Source: Escherichia phage vB_EcoM_WL-3
Direction: 5' to 3' (one strand)
Length of the DNA: 64,000 nt
Sequence record: MT968995.1
The position numbers were made by a program, and so were the translations under genes. How positions within the stretch are numbered: the stretch's first letter is position 1; every line of letters starts with the position of its first letter. The notes beneath the pieces are model-generated. The model saw only the letters and a program-made list of their open reading frames with translations. It was not told the origin of the DNA and did not search any database. This document shows, one piece after another, positions 10,100 to 55,518 of this stretch.

Positions 10100-11274
10100 T
10101 GAGTATGTTGCAACGCCCAGGATATCCAAATCTCAGCGTTAAATTGTTTGATAGCTACGACGCTTGGAGAAATAATAGATTTGTTGAATTAGCTGCTACT
10201 ATTACCACATTAACTATGCGGGATTCTCTTTATGGCCGAAATGAAGGAATGCTGCAGTTTTATGATTCTAAAAATATCCATACAAAAATGGATGGAAATG
10301 AAATAATTCAGATTTCTGTAGCTAATGCAAACGATATTAATAATGTTAAAACAAGAATTTATGGATGTAAGCATTTTTCAGTGTCAGTAGATTCAAAAGG
10401 TGATAACATCATTGCTATTGAATTGGGAACTATTCATTCTATAGAAAATCTTAAATTTGGCAGACCGTTTTTCCCTGATGCAGGTGAATCTATAAAAGAA
10501 ATGCTTGGTGTCATTTATCAAGATCGCACACTATTAACTCCAGCGATAAATGCTATAAATGCTTATGTTCCTGATATTCCATGGACTAGTACATTTGAAA
10601 ACTATTTGTCATATGTCAGAGAAGTTGCTCTAGCTGTAGGAAGTGACAAATTTGTGTTTGTGTGGCAAGACATCATGGGAGTTAACATGATGGACTATGA
10701 TATGATGATAAATCAAGAACCGTATCCAATGATTGTCGGTGAGCCATCTTTAATAGGTCAATTCATCCAAGAATTAAAATATCCATTAGCATATGATTTC
10801 GTTTGGTTGACTAAATCGAATCCTCACAAACGTGACCCAATGAAAAACGCTACTATCTATGCTCATTCATTTTTGGATTCTTCATTGCCAATGATTACTA
10901 CAGGAAAAGGAGAAAACTCTATTGTAGTGTCAAGGTCAGGTGCTTATTCTGAAATGACTTATAGGAATGGATATGAAGAAGCTATTCGTCTTCAAACTAT
11001 GGCGCAATACGATGGCTATGCTAAATGTTCTACTGTCGGTAATTTTAACTTGACACCTGGCGTTAAAATTATTTTTAATGATAGTAAAAACCAATTTAAA
11101 ACAGAATTTTACGTTGATGAAGTTATCCACGAATTATCCAATAATAATTCAGTAACTCATCTATATATGTTCACTAATGCAACGAAACTGGAAACAATAG
11201 ACCCAGTTAAGGTTAAAAATGAATTTAAATCTGATACTACCACTGAAGAAAGTAGTTCTTCCAATAAGCAATAA
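10099..11274 (+). CDS. 27: Baseplate hub protein gp27
   Basis: 391-aa ORF; T4 size and position. Confidence 0.9.
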
Positions 11275-11752
11275 AGAAGTTTCTATTCCTAAAATGGGTC
11301 TTAAACATTATAACATTTTAAAAGATGTTAAAGGTCCTGATGAAAATTTAAAACTTCTTATTGATTCTATTTGTCCAAATTTATCACCGGCAGAAGTTGA
11401 TTTCGTTTCTATTCATTTATTGGAATTTAATGGAAAGATTAAATCTCGTAAAGAAATAGATGGTTATACTTATGACATTAATGATGTTTATGTATGCCAA
11501 AGATTAGAATTTCAATACCAAGGAAATACATTTTATTTTAGACCGCCTGGAAAATTTGAACAATTTTTAACTGTGAGCGATATGTTATCCAAATGCTTGC
11601 TTAAGGTCAATGATGAAGTTAAAGAAATTAATTTTCTTGAGATGCCAGCATTCGTTTTAAAATGGGCAAATGATATTTTTACAACTTTAGCAATTCCTGG
11701 CCCTAATGGTCCAATAACCGGAATTGGCAATATTATTGGATTATTTGAATGA
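11219..11752 (+). CDS. 28: Baseplate hub distal protein gp28
   Basis: 177-aa ORF overlapping the 3' end of gene 27. Confidence 0.8.
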
Positions 11753-45254: not shown

Positions 45255-48200
45255 ATGGCCGAGATTAAAAGAAAGTTCAGAGCAGAAGACGGTCTGGACG
45301 CAGGTGGCGATAAAATAATCAACGTAGCTTTAGCTGATCGTACCGTAGGAACTGACGGTGTTAACGTTGATTACTTAATTCAAGAAAACACAGTTCAACA
45401 ATATGATCCAACTCGTGGATATTTAAAAGATTTTGTAATCATTTATAATAATCGTTTTTGGGCAGCAACGGATAATATTCCAAAACCTGCTGGAAGTTTT
45501 AATAGAATTCGTTGGAAAGCATTACGTACTGATGCCGTATATACAACCGTATCATCTGGACCATATCAATTAAAATCCGGAGAAGCAATTTCAGTAGATA
45601 CATCAGTTGGTAATGACATTGAGTTTAATTTACCACCTTCTCCGCTTGATGGAGAAACCGTAATAATTCAAGATATTGGTGGAAAACCTGGTATAAATCA
45701 GGTTAAAATAAATTCTTCAAATCAGAGTATTGTTAATTTTAGAGGTGAACAAGTACGTTCAGTTCTAATGACTCATCCAAAGTCACAGATGATATTCATT
45801 TTTAATAATCGTTTGTGGCAAATGTATGCTGCTGATTATAGCAGAGAAGCTGCGATTGTTACTCCATCAACTGCATATCAAGCACAATCTAATGATTTTA
45901 TCGTGCGTAGATTTACTTCCGCTGCGCCGATTAATATTAAACTTCCGAGATTTGCTAATCATGGCGATATTATTAATTCGTGCGTAGATTTACTTCCGCT
46001 GCGCCGATTAATATTAAACTTCCGAGATTTGCTAATCATGGCGATATTATTAATTTCGTTGATTTAGATAAATTAAATCCACTTTATCATACAATTGTCA
46101 CAACATATGATGAAACAACTTCAGTACAAGAAGTTGGAACTCATTCTATTGAAGGCCGTACATCAATTGACGGTTTCTTGATGTTTGATGATAATGAAAA
46201 ATTATGGAGACTGTTTGACGGGGATAGTAAAGCACGTTTACGCATTATAACAACTAATTCTAATATTCGTCCAAATGAAGAAGTTATGGTATTTGGCGCG
46301 AATAACGGAACAGCCCAAACAATTGAACTTCAACTTCCAACCGATATTTCCATTGGTGATACTGTTAAAATTTCCATGAATTACATGAGAAAAGGACAAA
46401 CAGTTAAAATCAAAGCTGCCGGTGAAGATAAAATTGCTTCTTCAGTTCAATTGCTGCAATTCCCAAAACGCTCAGAATATCCACCACCTGAAGCTGAATG
46501 GGTGACTGTCCAAGAATTAGTTTTCAATGGTGAAACTAATTATGTTCCGGTTTTACAACTTGCTTATATAGAAGATTCTGACGGAAAATACTGGGTTGTA
46601 CAACAAAACGTTCCAACGGTTGAAAGAGTCGATTCTTTAAATAATTCTACTAGAGCAAGATTAGGCGTAATAGCTTTAGCTACACAAGCTCAAGCTAACG
46701 TCGATTTAGAAAATTCTCCGCAAAAAGAATTAGCAATTACACCAGAAACATTAGCTAACCGTACTGCTACAGAAACTCGTAGAGGTATCGCAAGAATAGC
46801 AACTACTGCTCAAGTGAATCAGAACACCACATTCTCTTTTGCTGATGACCTTATCATCACTCCTAAAAAGCTGAATGAAAGAACTGCTACAGAAACTCGT
46901 AGAGGTGTAGCTGAAATTGCTACGCAGCAGGAAACTAATACAGGTACTGATGATACTACAATCATCACTCCTAAAAAGCTTCAAGCTCGACAAGGTTCTG
47001 AATCATTATCTGGTATTGTAACCTTTGTATCTACTGCGGGAGCTACTCCAGCTTCTAGTCGCGAATTAAATGGTACAAATGTTTATAATAAAAACACTAA
47101 TAATTTAGTTGTTTCGCCTAAAGCTTTGGATCAGTATAAAGCTACTCCAACACAACAAGGTGCAGTAATTTTAGCAGTTGAAAGTGAAGTAATTGCTGGA
47201 CAAAGCCAAGAAGGATGGGCAAATGCGGTTGTAACGCCAGAAACGTTACATAAAAAGACATCAACTGATGGAAGAATTGGTTTAATTGAGATTGCTACGC
47301 AAAGTGAAGTTAATACAGGAACTGATTATACTCGCGCAGTCACTCCTAAAACTTTAAATGACCGTAAAGCAACTGAAAGTTTAACTGGTATAGCTGAAAT
47401 TGCTACGCAAGTTGAATTCGACGCAGGCGTCGACGATACTCGTATCTCTACACCATTAAAAATTAAAACCAGATTTAATAGTACTGATCGTACTTCTGTT
47501 GTTGCTCTGTCTGGATTAGTTGAATCAGGAACTCTCTGGGACCATTATACCCTTAATATTCTTGAAGCAAATGAGACACAACGTGGTACACTTCGTGTAG
47601 CTACACAAGTTGAAGCTGCTGCAGGAACATTGGATAATGTTCTAATAACTCCTAAAAAGCTTTTAGGTACTAAATCTACTGAAGCGCAGGAAGGTGTTAT
47701 TAAAGTTGCAACTCGGTCTGAAACTGTAGCTGGAACGTCAGCAAATACTGCTGTATCTCCAAAAAATTTAAAATGGATTGTGCAGAGTGAACCTACTTGG
47801 GCAGCTACTACTGCGATAAGAGGTTTTGTTAAAACCTCATCCGGTTCAATTACATTCGTTGGTAATGATACAGCTGGTTCTACGCAGGACTTAGAACTAT
47901 ATGAGAAAAATAACTATGCAGTATCACCATATGAATTAAACCGCGTATTAGCAAATTATTTGCCGTTAAAAGCAAAAGCTGTAGATAGTAATTTATTAGA
48001 TGGTTTAGATTCACTCCAGTTCATTCGTAGGGATATTGCGCAGACGGTTAATGGTTCACTAACCTTAACACAACAAACGAATCTGAGTGCCCCTCTTGTA
48101 TCATCTAGTACTGCTACGTTTGGTGGATCAGTTTCGGCAAATAGTACATTAACTATTTCTAATACTGGAACGGCAACTCGTCTTATTTTTGAAAAAGGGC

Positions 48201-49204
48201 CTCAAACTGGGACGAACCCAGCTCAAACGATGACAGTCAGAGTGTGGGGAAATCAATTCAGCAGTGAATCGGACACAACACGTTCTACTGTATTTGAAGT
48301 TAGTGATGAAACGTCTAGTCACTTTTATTCTCAGCGCAATAAAGCTGGTAATATAACATTTAATATCAATGGTACAGTAACACCGATAAATGTGAATGCT
48401 TCAGGAACATTGAATGCGAATGGCGTTGCAACATTCGGTAGTTCAGTTACTGCTAATGGCGAATTTATCAGTAAATCGTCGAATGCTTTTAGAGCAATAA
48501 ATGGTGATTATGGATTCTTTATTCGTAATGATGGTGCTAACACCTATTTTATGCTTACTGCATCTGGTGATCAGACCGGTGGATTTAATGGATTACGTCC
48601 TTTATCTATTAATAATGCATCTGGTCAAGTAACGATTGGTGAAAGCTTAATCATTGCCAAAGGTGCTACTATAAGTTCAGGTGGTTTAACTGTTAACTCG
48701 AGAATTCGTTCTCAGGGTACTAAAACCTCTGATTTATATACCCGTGCGCCAACATCTGATACTGTAGGATTCTGGTCAATCGATATTAATGATTCAGCCA
48801 CTTATAACCAGTTCCCGGGTTATTTTAAAATGGTTGAAAAAACTAATGAAGTGACTGGACTTCCATACTTAGAACGTGGCGAAGAAGTTAAATCTCCCGG
48901 TACATTGACTCAGTTTGGTAACACACTTGATTCGCTTTACCAAGATTGGATTACTTATCCAACTACCCCAGAAGCGCGCACCACTCGCTGGACACGCACA
49001 TGGCAGAAAACCAAAAACTCTTGGTCAAGTTTTGTTCAGGTATTTGATGGGGGTAACCCTCCTCAACCTTCGGATATAGGAGCGATCCCATCTGATAACG
49101 GAATAATAGGTAATCTTACTATTCGTGATTTCTTGCGAATTGGTAATGTTCGCATTATTCCTGACCCAGTGAATAAAACTGTTAAATTTGAGTGGATTGA
49201 ATAA
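45255..49204 (+). pseudogene. 34: Gene 34 long tail fibre proximal subunit, interrupted by a frameshifting 77-bp tandem duplication
   Basis: Two ORFs (45255-46067 and 45980-49204) share RFTSAAPINIKLPRFANHGDIIN; deleting one 77-bp copy gives a single 3873-nt ORF. Confidence 0.85.
45899..46055 (+). repeat. Perfect tandem direct repeat, 2 copies of 77 bp
   Basis: Sequence at 45901-45977 is identical to 45978-46054; period 77 is not a multiple of 3. Confidence 0.95.
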
Positions 49205-50333: not shown

Positions 50334-50360
50334 GGGAGCCTTCGGGTTCCCTTTTTCTTT
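50334..50360 (+). terminator. Terminator after gene 35
   Basis: gggagcc-ttcg-ggttccc hairpin followed by a T-run. Confidence 0.55.
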
Positions 50361-50367
50361 ATAAATA
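50360..50367 (+). promoter_or_regulatory. Late promoter (TATAAATA) for gene 36
   Basis: Exact TATAAATA 24 nt upstream of the gene 36 ATG. Confidence 0.55.
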
Positions 50368-51049: not shown

Positions 51050-53998
51050 ATGGCTACTTTAAAACAAATACAATTTAAAAGAAGCAAAACTGCAGGTCAA
51101 CGTCCTGCTGCTTCAGTATTAGCCGAAGGTGAATTGGCTATAAACTTAAAAGATAAAACAATTTTCACAAAAGATGACTCAGGTAGTGTTATAGAATTAG
51201 GTTTAAAATATGGAGGAACTATAAATGGGTCTTTAGAGGTTACAGAAAATATAACTGGAACTTTAATTGGAAATTCTAGCACAGCTACTAAATTGCAAAC
51301 ACCTAGGAAAATTAATGGTATATCTTTTGATGGGTCAAAGGACATTACCTTAACTCCATCTGACATAAATGTCAATAGCACAACATTTATAAAAAATAAT
51401 GGCGAATTACCTACTGATGCTAATTTAGATACGTATGGGCCCATTGAAGAATATCTTGGTGTTTGGTCGAAATCTACTTCAACAAATGCGCAACCAGCAA
51501 ATAAATTCCCAGAAGAAAATGCCGTAGGTGTACTAGAAGTGTTTGTGGCCGGCCAATTTGCTGGCACTCAGCGTTATACTGTAAGATCTGGTAACGTCTA
51601 TATTCGTTCCTTATCTGCTAAATGGAATGGCGTCGATGGTCCATGGGGTGTGTGGCGTAATGTTCAAGCGTCAACTCGTCCACTTTCACAAACGATTGAC
51701 CTTGATAGCTTGGGAGAATTAGAACATTGTGGCTTATGGCGAAACAGTTCAAGCGCAATCGCATCATTTGATCGCCATTATCCAGAAGAAGGATCAGCCG
51801 CACAAGGATTTTTAGAAATATTTGAAGGTGGTTTATACACGAGAACTCAGCGTTATACTACCCGCATGGGTATGGTTTATACTCGTTGTCTCGCTGCTGC
51901 ATGGGATGCTAGTGCACCTAAGTGGGAGGAATGGAAGCAGGTTGGTCATGGCACACCAGCGACTTTCTATGATGGAGATCTGAATGATTTTAAAACTCCC
52001 GGGTTATATAATATTTTAGGCACTGATGCCGTTATTAACTGTCCTACAGGTGAAGGTTTGCCGACTGTTATTGTTGGTTTGCTGGAAGTTAAACAGCGTG
52101 CTTCTGGCGGTGCTATTTTCCAACGTTTCACTACCGCAGGAACGGGTGCAACTACTCGCGATCGTATTTTTGAGCGTGCATATACTGGTGGTGCGTGGGG
52201 TGCATGGAACGAAGTATATACATCTTATTCTCTGCCAATTACTTTGGGTATGGGTGGTATTAAAGCTCAATTAGCGGAGTTAGATTGGCAAACCTTTGAT
52301 TTTGTCCCTGGTAGTATGTTTAGTGTTCCTTTGAACAAAATAAAGAATATGCCAGCAAATATGGATTGGGGCACGATTGATGGAAACCTGGTTATGTTTT
52401 CTGTCGGTCCTAGCGAACATACCGGAACGGGTCGAACTGTTCAAGTGTGGCGCGGTACTGTATCTCAGGCGAACTATCGTTATTTCGTTGTTCGTATCGC
52501 TGGTAATCCAGGAAGTAGGACTAATACTTGTCGTCGTGTTGTTCTTGAAGACGGATCACATACTTGGACTGCTCAACAAAACTTTAGGGGATTGCTGAAT
52601 ATCACTGCTGCTGTTAATCTTGGTGCTAATCAGAAAATTTCACTTGCTCCAGGAGCATATATTCAAGCCCCTGCTAGCGGTTCTGGTTCTAATACTTACG
52701 CAAATCAGAATACTACCATTGCGCCATTATATCAGGCTATTGACGATTCAAATAAAAACCAGTTTGCGCCAATTGTTAAACAGAAAAACACTGTAACAAA
52801 TATTACTATGGCTTCTGGTATGGATATTGCTAGTTCAGAATATCGTATCGTTGCTCAGGGTGATTTATCCGCTACTGGAACTACAGCCACTGAATTAGCT
52901 ACATGGCGTTTCTTGCCGTCTGGCCGATTCATGTCACAAAGCCGAGTTTATGCTGGCGCAGCATTCTTGAACACTGATGGTAACATTGCTGGTTCAATCT
53001 GGAAGAAATACAACGATGCAACCAATTTAGATGCTGCCTTGAATACTCGCCTAGGTAAAGGCGGTGATACGATGACAGGTCGGTTAACAATCAATGCACC
53101 TAATGATTCTATTGTATTATCAACGACTGCTAGTAATTCTTTGCATATTCGTGGTGACATAGACGGGACTGGTAACTGGTATATTGGTAAGGGTGGTGCT
53201 GATAATTCGCTAGCATTTTATAGCTATGCTTCTCAGGCGGCAGTACATATCACAAACAGTGGTGAGATTGCGTTAAAACCGCAAAATACCGTAATGGTTA
53301 ACGTTAACCGTGACCGTGTACACATTAACGGTTCTGGATGGATTGCTAGACAACCGGGTGATTGGGGCAACCAATGGCGAGTAGAAGCTCCATTATTCGT
53401 TGATCATGGTTATGTTTCACAGGATTGTTATTATCCTATTCTTAAAGCAAGAAGCGTTATAACCAATCAAGGATATAGCACCGCTGTTGACTTTGGTATG
53501 CGTCGTATTCCATCACAGTGGGGGCAAGCAATCATTCGTGTCGGATCCACGGAGGCTTCTCCTGATGCTGGACACCCACAAGCTGTGTTTGAATTCCATC
53601 ATGATGGATTCTTTTATACACCAGGAAATGGTAGCTTTAGCGATGTGTATATTCGTTCTGACTCCCGTCTCAAGATTAATAAAGAAGAATTAGAATATGG
53701 AGCGGTCGAAAAAGTTTGCCGACTGAAAGTTTATATTTACGATAAAGTTAAGTCTATTAAAGACCGTAGTGTTATTAAACGTGAAGTTGGTATTATTGCT
53801 CAGGACCTTGAAAAGGAATTACCGGAAGCTGTATCTAAAGTTGAAGTTGATGGATCTGATGTTCTGACAATTTCTAACTCTGCTGTGAATGCTCTTTTAA
53901 TTAAGGCTATTCAGGAAATGAGTGAAGAAATTAAAGAATTGAAAACGCCTTTCTTCACTAAAATTGCTCGCAAAATTAGTAATTATTTTAAATTCTAA
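51050..53998 (+). CDS. 37: gp37 long tail fibre distal subunit with C-terminal intramolecular-chaperone-like domain
   Basis: 982-aa ORF; last ~113 aa (from SDSRLK, nt 53657) resemble the autocleaving C-terminal chaperone domain of phage fibres. Confidence 0.85.
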
Positions 53999-54004
53999 CA
54001 ACAA

Positions 54005-54020
54005 GGGGCTTTGCCCCTTT
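54005..54020 (+). terminator. Hairpin after gene 37
   Basis: ggggc-ttt-gcccc hairpin and TTT immediately before the gene 38 RBS. Confidence 0.4.
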
Positions 54021-54030
54021 GGAGAAAATT

Positions 54031-54831
54031 ATGGCAGTAGTTGGTGTTCCCGGTTGGATTGGAAGTTCATCTGTAAATGAAACAGGACAACGATGGATGA
54101 GTCAAGCGGCTGGTCAATTAAGATTGGGTGTTCCTTGCTGGATGAGCCAATTCGCCGGACGCTCAAGAGAGATTATTCATACCGTAACAGCAAACCATAA
54201 CTTTAATGGTCAATGGTTCCGCGACCGTTGCTTTGAAGCTGGCGGTGCACCCATTGTATTCAATATTGTTGGTGATATCGTTTCTTATTCTAAAGATGTG
54301 CCACTTTTCTTTATGTATGGGGATACGCCTAATGAATATGTTGTTCTTAATATTCATGGCGGTGTTCATATGTGGGGTCGTGGTGGTAATGGTGGATACA
54401 CTCACTCAGGAGGCGACGGTAACGGTACACAAGGCGGTCATGTTATTCAAAATGATATCGGTGGACGGCTTCGTATTTGGAACTACGGTGTTATAGCTGC
54501 TGGTGGTGGTGGTGGTGGCGGTATTGCATATCGTCCACACTCAGGGGCAAACTGGCAAGATATCGGTGGCGGCGGCGGTCGACCTTTCGGTGGGGCTGGC
54601 GGTGGCGGTTATTCCGGTGGTGCTGCTTCGTATGAAGGTCCGGGTGGTGGTTATGACTATGGTAACGCACACTCCGGCGCTGGTGGTAATGCTGGTGCTG
54701 CTGGTCAGAATGCATGGTCTGACGGCGGTAAAGTTCTTAAAGTTGGTGTTGGTGGTGCGTCTGGTCATGCAGTGTTTGGGTCTTCTCCAACTTGGGGTGT
54801 TGTTGGAACAATTTACGGACCAAGAGTATAA
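54031..54831 (+). CDS. 38: gp38 receptor-recognising adhesin, T2/T6 type with glycine-rich motifs
   Basis: 266 aa from ATG 54031 (GGAG RBS); poly-Gly blocks GGGGGGG separated by variable segments; the ORF-track start at 54019 is a TTG. Confidence 0.8.
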
Positions 54832-54861
54832 TTTGAATAAATATCCTTAAAAGGAGGGTCT

Positions 54862-55518
54862 ATGGCAGCACCTAGAATATCATTTTCGCCCTCTGATATT
54901 CTGTTGGGTGTTCTAGATCGCTTGTTCAAAGATAATGCTACCGGGAAAGTTCTTGCTTCCCGGGTAGCTGTCGTAATTCTTTTGTTTATAATGGCGATTG
55001 TTTGGTATAGGGGAGATAGTTTCTTTGAGTACTATAAGCAATCAAAGTATGAAACATACAGTGAAATTATTGAAAAGGAAAGAAATGCACGCTTTGAATC
55101 TGTCGCCCTGGAACAACTCCAGATAGTTCACATATCATCTGAGGCAGACTTTAGTGCGGTGTATTCTTTCCGCCCTAAAAACTTAAACTATTTTGTTGAT
55201 ATTATAGCATATGAAGGAAAATTACCTTCAACAATAAGTGAAAAATCACTTGGAGGATATCCTGTTGATAAAACTATGGATGAATATACAGTTCATTTAA
55301 ATGGACGTCATTATTATTCCAATTCAAAATTTGCTTTTTTACCAACTAAAAAGCCTACTCCCGAAATAAATTACATGTATAGTTGTCCATATTTTAATTT
55401 GGATAATATCTATGCTGGAACAATAACCATGTACTGGTATAGAAATGATCATATAAGTAATGACCGCCTTGAATCAATATGTTCTCAGGCGGCCAGAATA
55501 TTAGGAAGGGCTAAATAA
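54862..55518 (+). CDS. t: Holin T
   Basis: 218-aa ORF; single N-terminal transmembrane segment and large periplasmic domain; T4 size and position. Confidence 0.9.
   Translation: MAAPRISFSPSDILLGVLDRLFKDNATGKVLASRVAVVILLFIMAIVWYRGDSFFEYYKQSKYETYSEIIEKERNARFESVALEQLQIVHISSEADFSAVYSFRPKNLNYFVDIIAYEGKLPSTISEKSLGGYPVDKTMDEYTVHLNGRHYYSNSKFAFLPTKKPTPEINYMYSCPYFNLDNIYAGTITMYWYRNDHISNDRLESICSQAARILGRAK

Follow-up and report, generated by a model that had tools for sequence, protein, structure and literature searches.

The long tail fibre tip of Escherichia phage vB_EcoM_WL-3: a T2-family gp37-gp38 module with an Ox2-type specificity domain and a predicted OmpA receptor

Introduction

The fibre-tip module decides which bacteria a phage can adsorb to. 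The distal fibre genes of vB_EcoM_WL-3 raise two questions: whether gp37 carries the receptor-binding tip or is processed and capped by a gp38 adhesin, and which host receptor the tip recognises. The window analysed is the whole 64,000-nucleotide stretch of sequence record MT968995.1, and all positions are counted from its first letter. With a probability of about 0.92, the locus encodes a T2-family distal tip module for the long tail fibre of a Tequatrovirus, with an Ox2-type specificity domain and working by the mechanism described below.

Results

gp37 ends in a predicted self-cleaving chaperone domain

51050..53998, plus strand: gene 37, long tail fibre distal subunit precursor, 982 aa (ORF list, Pfam)
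53654..53659, plus strand: predicted gp37 autocleavage site Arg869^Ser870 (DVYIR^SDSRLK), aligned to S16 gp37
53657..53995, plus strand: gp37 C-terminal intramolecular chaperone domain, residues 870-982, 113 aa (PF13884 and conserved motif)
53657-53659 and 53672-53674, plus strand: putative catalytic dyad of the chaperone domain motif, Ser870 and Lys875

Two Pfam profiles match gp37, gp37_trimer at residues 693-738 and Peptidase_S74 (PF13884) at residues 870-928. The Peptidase_S74 match (E = 6.2e-10) covers profile positions 1-57 of 58 and scores 39.7 bits against a curated cut-off of 22 bits; all Pfam matches reported here for gp37 and gp38 exceed their curated cut-offs, and those to Peptidase_S74, GP38 and Gp38_N are far beyond chance. 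The terminal 113 residues of the 982 start at SDSRLK with Ser870 at nt 53657 and carry the S-D-x-R-x-K signature, a serine at the cleavage site with a lysine five residues on (S870-D-S-R-L-K875). The DVYIR^SDSRLK sequence aligns with DLNVS^SDRRIK of S16 gp37 (PDB 6f45_A), SDSRLK aligns with SDERLK of PDB 8jov, and the S, D, R, L and K of SDxRLK are invariant in the alignment of T2, T6, Ox2, M1 and Nami. The last 113 residues of S16 gp37 are autocleaved at S^SDRRIK, and related Tequatrovirus gp37 proteins align likewise (PMC7917993). The first-pass annotation had given gp37 982 residues and a 113-residue tail from SDSRLK, which is correct to the base, and its description of this tail as an autoproteolytic, chaperone-like domain agrees with the Peptidase_S74 match and the S16 cleavage-site alignment.

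The same 113 residues could instead stay on the virion and serve a structural or receptor-binding role, with gp38 acting solely in assembly. This reading draws on the weak PDB matches of the isolated domain: the best is to S16 gp37 (E = 0.009), and the endosialidase chaperone structure gave no direct sequence link in this search, so the domain assignment relies on the Pfam profile together with the conserved motif. Against retention, the Ser/Lys motif is intact and invariant in T2, T6, Ox2, M1 and S16, and the domain sequence is identical to that of T6. C-terminal processing of gp37 is reported for T2/T6, where gp38 then caps the fibre (PMC3157838), and for S16 (PMC7917993), and WL-3 gp38 has kept the docking domain with its tryptophans. 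Retention is therefore highly improbable, and cleavage of the gp37 C-terminus is the preferred reading.

Gene 38 and its flanks

50360..50367, plus strand: TATAAATA, exact match to the T4-type late-promoter consensus; gene 36 lies 24 nt downstream
54003..54024, plus strand: intergenic 7-bp hairpin AAGGGGC/GCCCCUU at 54003-54019, 5' of the GGAG (sequence, fold)
54021-54024, plus strand: Shine-Dalgarno GGAG of gene 38, 6 nt before ATG 54031
54031..54831, plus strand: gene 38, tail-fibre tip adhesin, 266 aa plus stop, from ATG (Pfam, PDB, Ox2 similarity)
54862..55518, plus strand: gene t (holin), which closes the fibre module downstream (Pfam Phage_holin_T, E = 8.4e-118)

Gene 38 sits directly after gene 37 and before gene t, an order shared with T2, T6, T4, Ox2 and M1. 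A mechanical ORF list starts the gene at TTG 54019 (270 aa). This start was rejected and ATG 54031 (266 aa) is preferred, because the GGAG precedes the ATG by 6 nt but overlaps the second codon of the TTG frame, and because Ox2 gene 38 is annotated from the corresponding ATG. The intergenic hairpin folds with -11 kcal/mol, no better than shuffled sequences (z = -1.29). It was rejected as a terminator, since the shuffles fold equally well and it is missing from the terminator scan output.

The consensus motif is a promoter element in T4 late transcription. The copy of TATAAATA upstream of gene 36 is likely the promoter of a 36-37-38 transcription unit; the count of this motif over the 64-kb stretch is not above chance. 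No further copy lies between 50367 and gene t, and a late promoter of its own for gene 38 was rejected on this basis. Elsewhere among the fibre genes, gene 34 contains, in the interval 45880-46080, a 77-nt perfect tandem duplication that disrupts its frame and may be an assembly artefact. Neither T6 nor any of the eight best-matching database records has it.

gp38 is a T2-type adhesin

54031..54156, plus strand: gp38 N-terminal attachment domain, residues 1-42, with Trp9, Trp22 and Trp37 (Pfam Gp38_N)
54394..54435, plus strand: variable segment A, gp38 residues 122-135, Ox2-type, boundaries approximate (alignment)
54523..54561, plus strand: variable segment B, residues 165-177, including Arg168, the equivalent of AV119 Arg165 (alignment)
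54592..54675, plus strand: variable segment C, residues 188-215, including Gly193 (alignment)
54706..54750, plus strand: variable segment D, residues 226-240 (alignment)

The gp38 sequence matches Pfam GP38 (PF05268; E = 8.7e-66, 222.3 bits, cut-off 25) over all 218 profile positions (1-218), and its residues 1-42 match Gp38_N (PF21721; E = 3.2e-19, 69.1 bits, cut-off 25). Two crystal chains align with the protein, the PP01 gp38 receptor-binding domain (PDB 9v85; E = 2.6e-61, residues 38-266) and S16 gp38 (PDB 6f45_D; E = 2.3e-43, residues 5-263), the latter alignment including the glycine runs and three tryptophans, W9, W22 and W37, which correspond to tryptophans of S16 gp38. The S16 tryptophans are described as plugging into the tip of the gp37 trimer (PMC6851490).

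Glycine accounts for 69 of the 266 residues and for 57 of the last 157, with runs of seven (158-164), five (179-183), four (190-193) and three (205-207). The T2-type gp38 family is defined by such glycine-rich motifs alternating with hypervariable segments (PMC3157838), and the alignment of gp38 from Ox2, RB32, AV119, M1, T6 and T2 shows conserved glycine motifs and variable intervening segments. Segment A is common to Ox2, RB32 and AV119 and, through an insertion, is 5 residues longer than in T6, M1 and T2; segment D is identical to that of Ox2, unlike those of T6, M1 and T2. The gp38 structure, a polyglycine-II sandwich with a β-helix, has been described (PMC6851490, PMC12892980), and by homology to 9v85 and 6f45_D the WL-3 protein is predicted to have the same sandwich on a β-helix.

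In the T4 arrangement, gp37 would carry the receptor-binding tip and gp38 would be a non-structural assembly chaperone, and one database record does call a 98.5%-identical gp38 a 'distal long tail fiber assembly catalyst'. The alignments speak against this label. The best blastp match between WL-3 and T4 gp38 is 7 residues long (E = 3.6), and T4 gp37 matches WL-3 gp37 only at residues 1-64 and, weakly, at two shaft segments, 496-648 and 755-825, not at the tip. The RefSeq note on T4 gp38 also states that the 'gp38' of the T2 subfamily is unrelated to the T4 protein and is an adhesin. Since the WL-3 proteins resemble neither T4 gp38 nor the tip of T4 gp37, the T4-type reading has a negligible probability and was rejected in favour of a T2-type adhesin. 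Several earlier proposals hold up at this point: that the gene after 37 and ending at 54831 encodes a glycine-rich protein of 266 residues, that this is a T2-type gp38 adhesin, that the pair differs from T4-type gp37/gp38, and, on the alignments and the literature on relatives, that the variable loops between glycine blocks determine host range.

The tip module is a mosaic of T6-like and Ox2-like parts

54320..54360, no strand: approximate recombination junction in gene 38, about residue 100-110, just before the first glycine-rich motif (sliding identity)

Sliding nucleotide identity to T6 is 96-100% in the windows over 53423-54361, except for a dip to 88-89% in 54137-54271. Over 54362-54742 the windows fall to 41-64% for T6 versus 92-100% for Ox2. 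At the protein level, the receptor-binding half of gp38 (residues 105-266) is 98.8% identical to Ox2, 83.3% to RB32, 82.0% to AV119, 56% to T6 and 48% to T2, and WL-3, Ox2, RB32 and AV119 have no indels in this region and the same loop lengths. The module is a recombinant that joins a T6-like gp37 tip, chaperone domain and gp38 attachment domain to an Ox2-like gp38 receptor-binding half; the gp37 shaft has a KEP10/UTI-E4-type middle segment. The 'T2/T6-type' label given to the module at first pass thus fits the family, the gp37 tip and the gp38 N-terminus, but not the receptor-binding half, which is Ox2-type.

OmpA is the predicted receptor

Ox2, RB32 and AV119, all OmpA-dependent, have variable loops that match those of WL-3 gp38, and on this analogy OmpA is probably its primary receptor. 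Ox2 binds the OmpA loops, AV119 is OmpA-dependent and RB32 needs OmpA together with LPS. The receptors listed in the first-pass annotation (OmpF, OmpC, Tsx and FadL) leave out OmpA, the likely one by this loop match.

In silico predictions for AV119/FL08 name R165 with its neighbours VHSGA, R181, D217/N217 and R262 as OmpA contacts, with RVHSGA of AV119 as the main contacting stretch (PMC12032242). The arginines R165, R181 and R262 correspond to R168, R184 and R265 of WL-3 gp38 in the alignment. The WL-3 stretch reads R168-PHSGA, in which P169 replaces V166 of AV119, as in Ox2. The AV119 contact Asp217 is Asn220 in WL-3, again as in Ox2, and this position counts against a match of the OmpA contacts.

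Only two residues, K174N and R193G, separate the receptor-binding half from that of Ox2, and both lie in or beside variable segments. A primary receptor other than OmpA (OmpC, LPS core, Tsx, or a dual receptor such as OmpA with LPS) could arise on the same architecture from these two loop substitutions or from an effect of the T6-type N-terminal half on specificity. RB32 and Ox2 are described as needing more than one host component (OmpA and LPS composition), and a few residue changes can switch the receptor: an adhesin with single-residue changes from T2 in two variable segments uses other receptors (PMC3157838). Because few substitutions can shift the receptor in the gp38 family, OmpA stays a prediction. 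Nevertheless, AV119 also has N174 and G193, RB32 has G193, and both phages are OmpA-dependent; outside these two positions all four variable segments equal those of Ox2; phylogeny of gp38 without its N-terminus predicts the receptor; and the Tsx binder T6 is just 56% identical in this half. A different primary receptor is thus unlikely, and OmpA is retained as the prediction.

In WL-3, the gp37 tip and the gp38 attachment domain are T6-type, the gp37 shaft has the KEP10/UTI-E4-type middle segment, and the Ox2-type receptor-binding half has N174 and G193. This particular combination might not share the receptor range of Ox2: it could extend to OmpC or LPS, for instance, or tolerate more OmpA loop variants. 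We consider such a shift quite doubtful; if true, it would be a natural case of host-range tuning via domain shuffling within gene 38. As an OmpA binder, WL-3 is predicted to belong to the broader-host-range 'type 1' OmpA group, a placement useful for phage cocktail design and for anticipating resistance through ompA mutation.

Proposed mechanism of tip assembly

In the proposed mechanism, gp37 would be made as a 982-aa precursor whose last 113 residues help three chains fold into a trimeric β-helix. The chaperone domain would then cut itself off between Arg869 and Ser870 via the Ser870/Lys875 dyad and expose a hydrophobic gp37 tip. One copy of gp38 would dock on this tip by its N-terminal helical domain with Trp9, Trp22 and Trp37. 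The glycine-rich motifs of the C-terminal half would fold into a sandwich of polyglycine-II helices, and the variable loops between them would bind the receptor, most likely OmpA through its extracellular loops. We infer cleavage, the 3:1 stoichiometry, the polyglycine-II fold and OmpA binding from relatives, by analogy. No sequence feature contradicts a T2-family tip with an Ox2-type specificity domain, the assignment that joins the observed domain content, motifs, homology and mosaic structure.

Discussion

The tip module of WL-3 is of a known kind and adds no new biology: its architecture, processing, structure and receptor logic are established. Near-identical gp38 proteins (99.6%) are public in the Tequatrovirus genomes Nami, EcNP1 and ESh29, Ox2 gene 38 is a long-standing record (X05675), and relatives have been solved structurally.

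The position of the genes is also that of T4, where 37, 38 and t follow in the same places and the gp37 N-terminus is 75% identical over 64 residues. T4 gp38 is unrelated to the WL-3 protein, and the T4 gp37 C-terminus lacks a Peptidase_S74 domain match to WL-3 gp37.

The S16 gp37-gp38 complex (PDB 6F45) has the organisation predicted for the WL-3 module: gp37 forms a trimeric tip and loses a 113-residue chaperone domain by autocleavage at S^SDxRxK, and gp38 is a monomer that docks by three tryptophans and folds as a polyglycine-II sandwich. The S16 sequence is distant, with many substitutions in gp38 (E = 2e-43) and a gp37 tip match of E = 2e-3. The title of a reference cited in PMC7917993 names Salmonella OmpC as what S16 recognises. 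PP01 gp38 (PDB 9V85) is the closest solved chain, and the β-helix and glycine-rich motifs are conserved between it and WL-3. Its variable loops are unlike those of WL-3 in sequence and length, and its receptor is OmpC of E. coli O157.

The 'type 1' OmpA-binding Gp38 of AV119/FL08 (Lutz et al. 2025) and the gp38 of RB32 have variable segments of the same lengths as WL-3 and are 82-83% identical. AV119 and RB32 share with WL-3 the R-x-HSGA motif, R184 and R265 (WL-3 numbering). The AV119 N-terminal attachment domain differs from that of WL-3 (72% identical).

The Tsx-specific phage T6 (AP018814) matches the other part of the mosaic: from the gp37 tip through the chaperone domain to residue 104 of gp38, identity is 97-100% in nucleotides and 99% in protein. 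T6 gp37 is 93% identical over WL-3 residues 1-524 and 89% over 677-982, with no alignment to residues 525-676, and loop lengths in the T6 gp38 receptor-binding half differ from those of WL-3. The Ox2 gp38 (X05675) is likewise a 266-residue protein encoded between gene 37 and gene t, is 97.0% identical to WL-3 gp38 overall and matches it in every variable segment except at K174N and R193G. Six of the eight differences fall in residues 52-83, where WL-3 follows T6, and the Ox2 gp37 tip ahead of the chaperone domain has only 70-76% nucleotide identity to WL-3.

Organization of the distal tail-fibre genes

ORFs and Pfam matches place the T-even gene order 34, 35, 36, 37, 38, t, asiA at 45-56 kb of the window. 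The 24 kb at 40000-64000 is ~96% identical to many Tequatrovirus genomes by database nucleotide comparison. The fibre tip is encoded by two adjacent genes.

51050-53998: gene 37, 982-aa gp37, from the ORF list
54031-54831: gene 38, ATG start, 266-aa gp38, from the ORF list with the start chosen by GGAG and the Ox2 annotation

The mechanical ORF list begins gene 38 at TTG 54019. This start was set aside because GGAG sits 6 nt 5' of ATG 54031 and translation from that ATG gives the same 266-aa product as the Ox2 gene 38 annotation. In the T6 record AP018814, gene 38 (10711-11508) is annotated from the upstream TTG (LEKIM...), and MZ726795 gives a 98.5%-identical adhesin the function of T4 gp38, "distal long tail fiber assembly catalyst." The TTG start and the label seem to reflect either transfer of T4 annotation or the choice of an ORF caller. 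The gap between the gene 37 stop codon and the ribosome-binding site of gene 38 holds a 7-bp GC-rich hairpin (AAGGGGC-UUU-GCCCCUU, 54003-54019), whose 3' arm stops 2 nt ahead of the Shine-Dalgarno sequence. The hairpin is kept in T6 and Nami, and its folding is no better than that of shuffled sequence (z = -1.29). A late-promoter consensus at 50360, ahead of gene 36, is presumably the source of transcription, judging from T4 late transcription; a motif scan found no further TATAAATA between it and gene t, the holin gene.

Upstream, gene 34 (proximal tail fibre) carries a perfect 77-nt tandem duplication, 45901-45977 being repeated at 45978-46054. As 77 is not divisible by three, the frame shifts and gp34 would be truncated; gene 34 is split into one ORF for the N-terminal 270 aa (45255-46067) and another for the 1074-aa remainder (45980-49204). 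The duplication is absent from T6, and the best 8 database matches listed align as two segments across 184 nt rather than 261, indicating that it is missing there too. The repeat is either an artefact of assembly or the mark of a genuine duplication mutant with defective long tail fibres.

The gp37 C-terminal domain

SDSRLK begins at gp37 residue 870 (nt 53657) and leaves 113 residues. Pfam Peptidase_S74 ("chaperone of endosialidase") matches residues 870-928 with 39.7 bits, the curated cut-off being 22. A PDB search aligned the cleavage segment with DLNVS-SDRRIK of Salmonella phage S16 gp37 (6f45_A) and the motif with SDERLK of another fibre (8jov). The last 113 residues of S16 gp37 are an intramolecular chaperone that removes itself by cutting between the paired serines of DLNVS^SDRRIKK, and DVYIR^SDGRLKI of related Tequatrovirus gp37 aligns to this site (PMC7917993). 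The window counterpart is DVYIR^SDSRLKI, with the same 113-residue length, and T2, T6, Ox2, M1 and Nami all keep the motif residues S, D, R, L and K. PMC3157838 describes C-terminal processing of gp37 in T2 and T6, with gp38 then capping the fibre, and cites Drexler et al. 1986 for T2. The isolated 113-residue query gave weak PDB matches only, so the chaperone assignment rests on the Pfam profile and the motif. By analogy with its relatives, the domain would assist gp37 trimer folding, with self-cleavage predicted at R869^S870.

gp38 is a glycine-rich adhesin

The 266-aa product contains 69 glycines; 57 fall within the C-terminal 157 residues, where runs reach seven. GC content climbs to 0.50 and GC skew to +0.30 at 54250-55000, against flanks of ~0.35-0.40 GC. 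This peak overlies the glycine-rich (GGN codon) half of gene 38 and is a coding-composition effect; foreign DNA was dropped as its source for this reason. Pfam GP38 (full profile, E = 8.7e-66) and Gp38_N (E = 3.2e-19) both match. Among solved chains the nearest are the receptor-binding domain of PP01 gp38 (9v85, E = 2.6e-61) and S16 gp38 (6f45_D, E = 2.3e-43), the latter aligned across residues 5-263. In the S16 and PP01 structures, the glycine-rich motifs build a polyglycine-II helix lattice, variable loops at the distal end form the receptor-binding site, and three conserved tryptophans of the N-terminal helical domain plug into the gp37 trimer (PMC6851490, PMC12892980). Trp9, Trp22 and Trp37 occupy the positions aligned with the S16 tryptophans. 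The window gp38 probably folds likewise as a polyglycine-II sandwich, with one gp38 expected per gp37 trimer.

Sequence comparison found no similarity to T4 gp38, and T4 gp37 matches the window protein at the N-terminus and shaft only. The tip is thus not T4-type, in agreement with the first-pass annotation. Its interval for the feature, 53657-54831, runs exactly from the first SDSRLK codon to the end of the gene 38 ORF, and the 982-aa gp37 with a ~113-aa chaperone-like C-terminal segment and the 266-aa glycine-rich gp38 that it described are borne out.

Mosaic structure of the tip

Identities to window gp38, overall and for residues 105-266 (receptor-binding half)
Ox2: 97.0% overall; 98.8% residues 105-266
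RB32: 86.5% overall; 83.3% residues 105-266
AV119: 78.3% overall; 82.0% residues 105-266
T6: 73.5% overall; 56.2% residues 105-266
M1: 73.2% overall; 60.0% residues 105-266
T2: 48.2% overall; 48.4% residues 105-266

T6 gp38 is 99% identical across the first 104 residues, whereas the receptor-binding half differs from Ox2 solely by K174N and R193G. AV119 carries both window states (N174, G193) and RB32 carries G193. Sliding nucleotide identity resolves two blocks. A T6-like block from ~53420 to ~54340 (windows 96-100%, except for a dip to 88-89% at 54137-54271) spans the gp37 tip, the chaperone domain, the intergenic region and the attachment and early β-helix parts of gp38. From there to the end of gene 38, identity is 92-100% to Ox2 and 41-64% to T6. 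The junction falls shortly before the first glycine-rich motif, and recombination inside these conserved motifs is the route discussed for the gp38 family (PMC3157838). The public genomes Nami, EcNP1 and ESh29 encode a 99.6%-identical gp38, yet the gp37 tip of Nami differs from that of the window. In the middle shaft, gp37 residues 525-676 (~52622-53078) stay unaligned against both T6 and Nami, which are 82-93% identical elsewhere. This segment is 99.5-99.8% identical to UTI-E4, S2_01, KEP10, AV121, WilhelmHis and others, and the match to a different phage set makes it a further, distinct mosaic block of gene 37.

Predicted receptor

OmpA is bound by Ox2 and K3 at its four extracellular loops, AV119 is an OmpA-dependent member of the broader-host-range "type 1" group, and the receptor can be predicted from gp38 phylogeny once the N-terminus is left out (PMC12032242). 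RB32 needs OmpA and is affected by LPS composition (PMC3157838). The residues named for AV119 gp38 (R165-VHSGA, R181, D217 and R262; PMC12032242) were found at those positions in the fetched protein and correspond to R168-PHSGA, R184, N220 and R265 of the window gp38 as predicted contacts. The relatives' receptors, the residue correspondence and the phylogeny rule make OmpA the best-supported prediction, with gp38 probably binding the OmpA loops. The prediction stays provisional, since receptor use in this family can switch after minor changes (PMC3157838). OmpA is absent from the receptors that the first-pass annotation listed for testing.

Relation to known fibre tips

Published work already covers the family together with its processing, structure and receptor logic. 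Ox2 gene 38 has long been public (X05675), and several genomes encode near-identical proteins. The annotation of the window tip is correct but ordinary.
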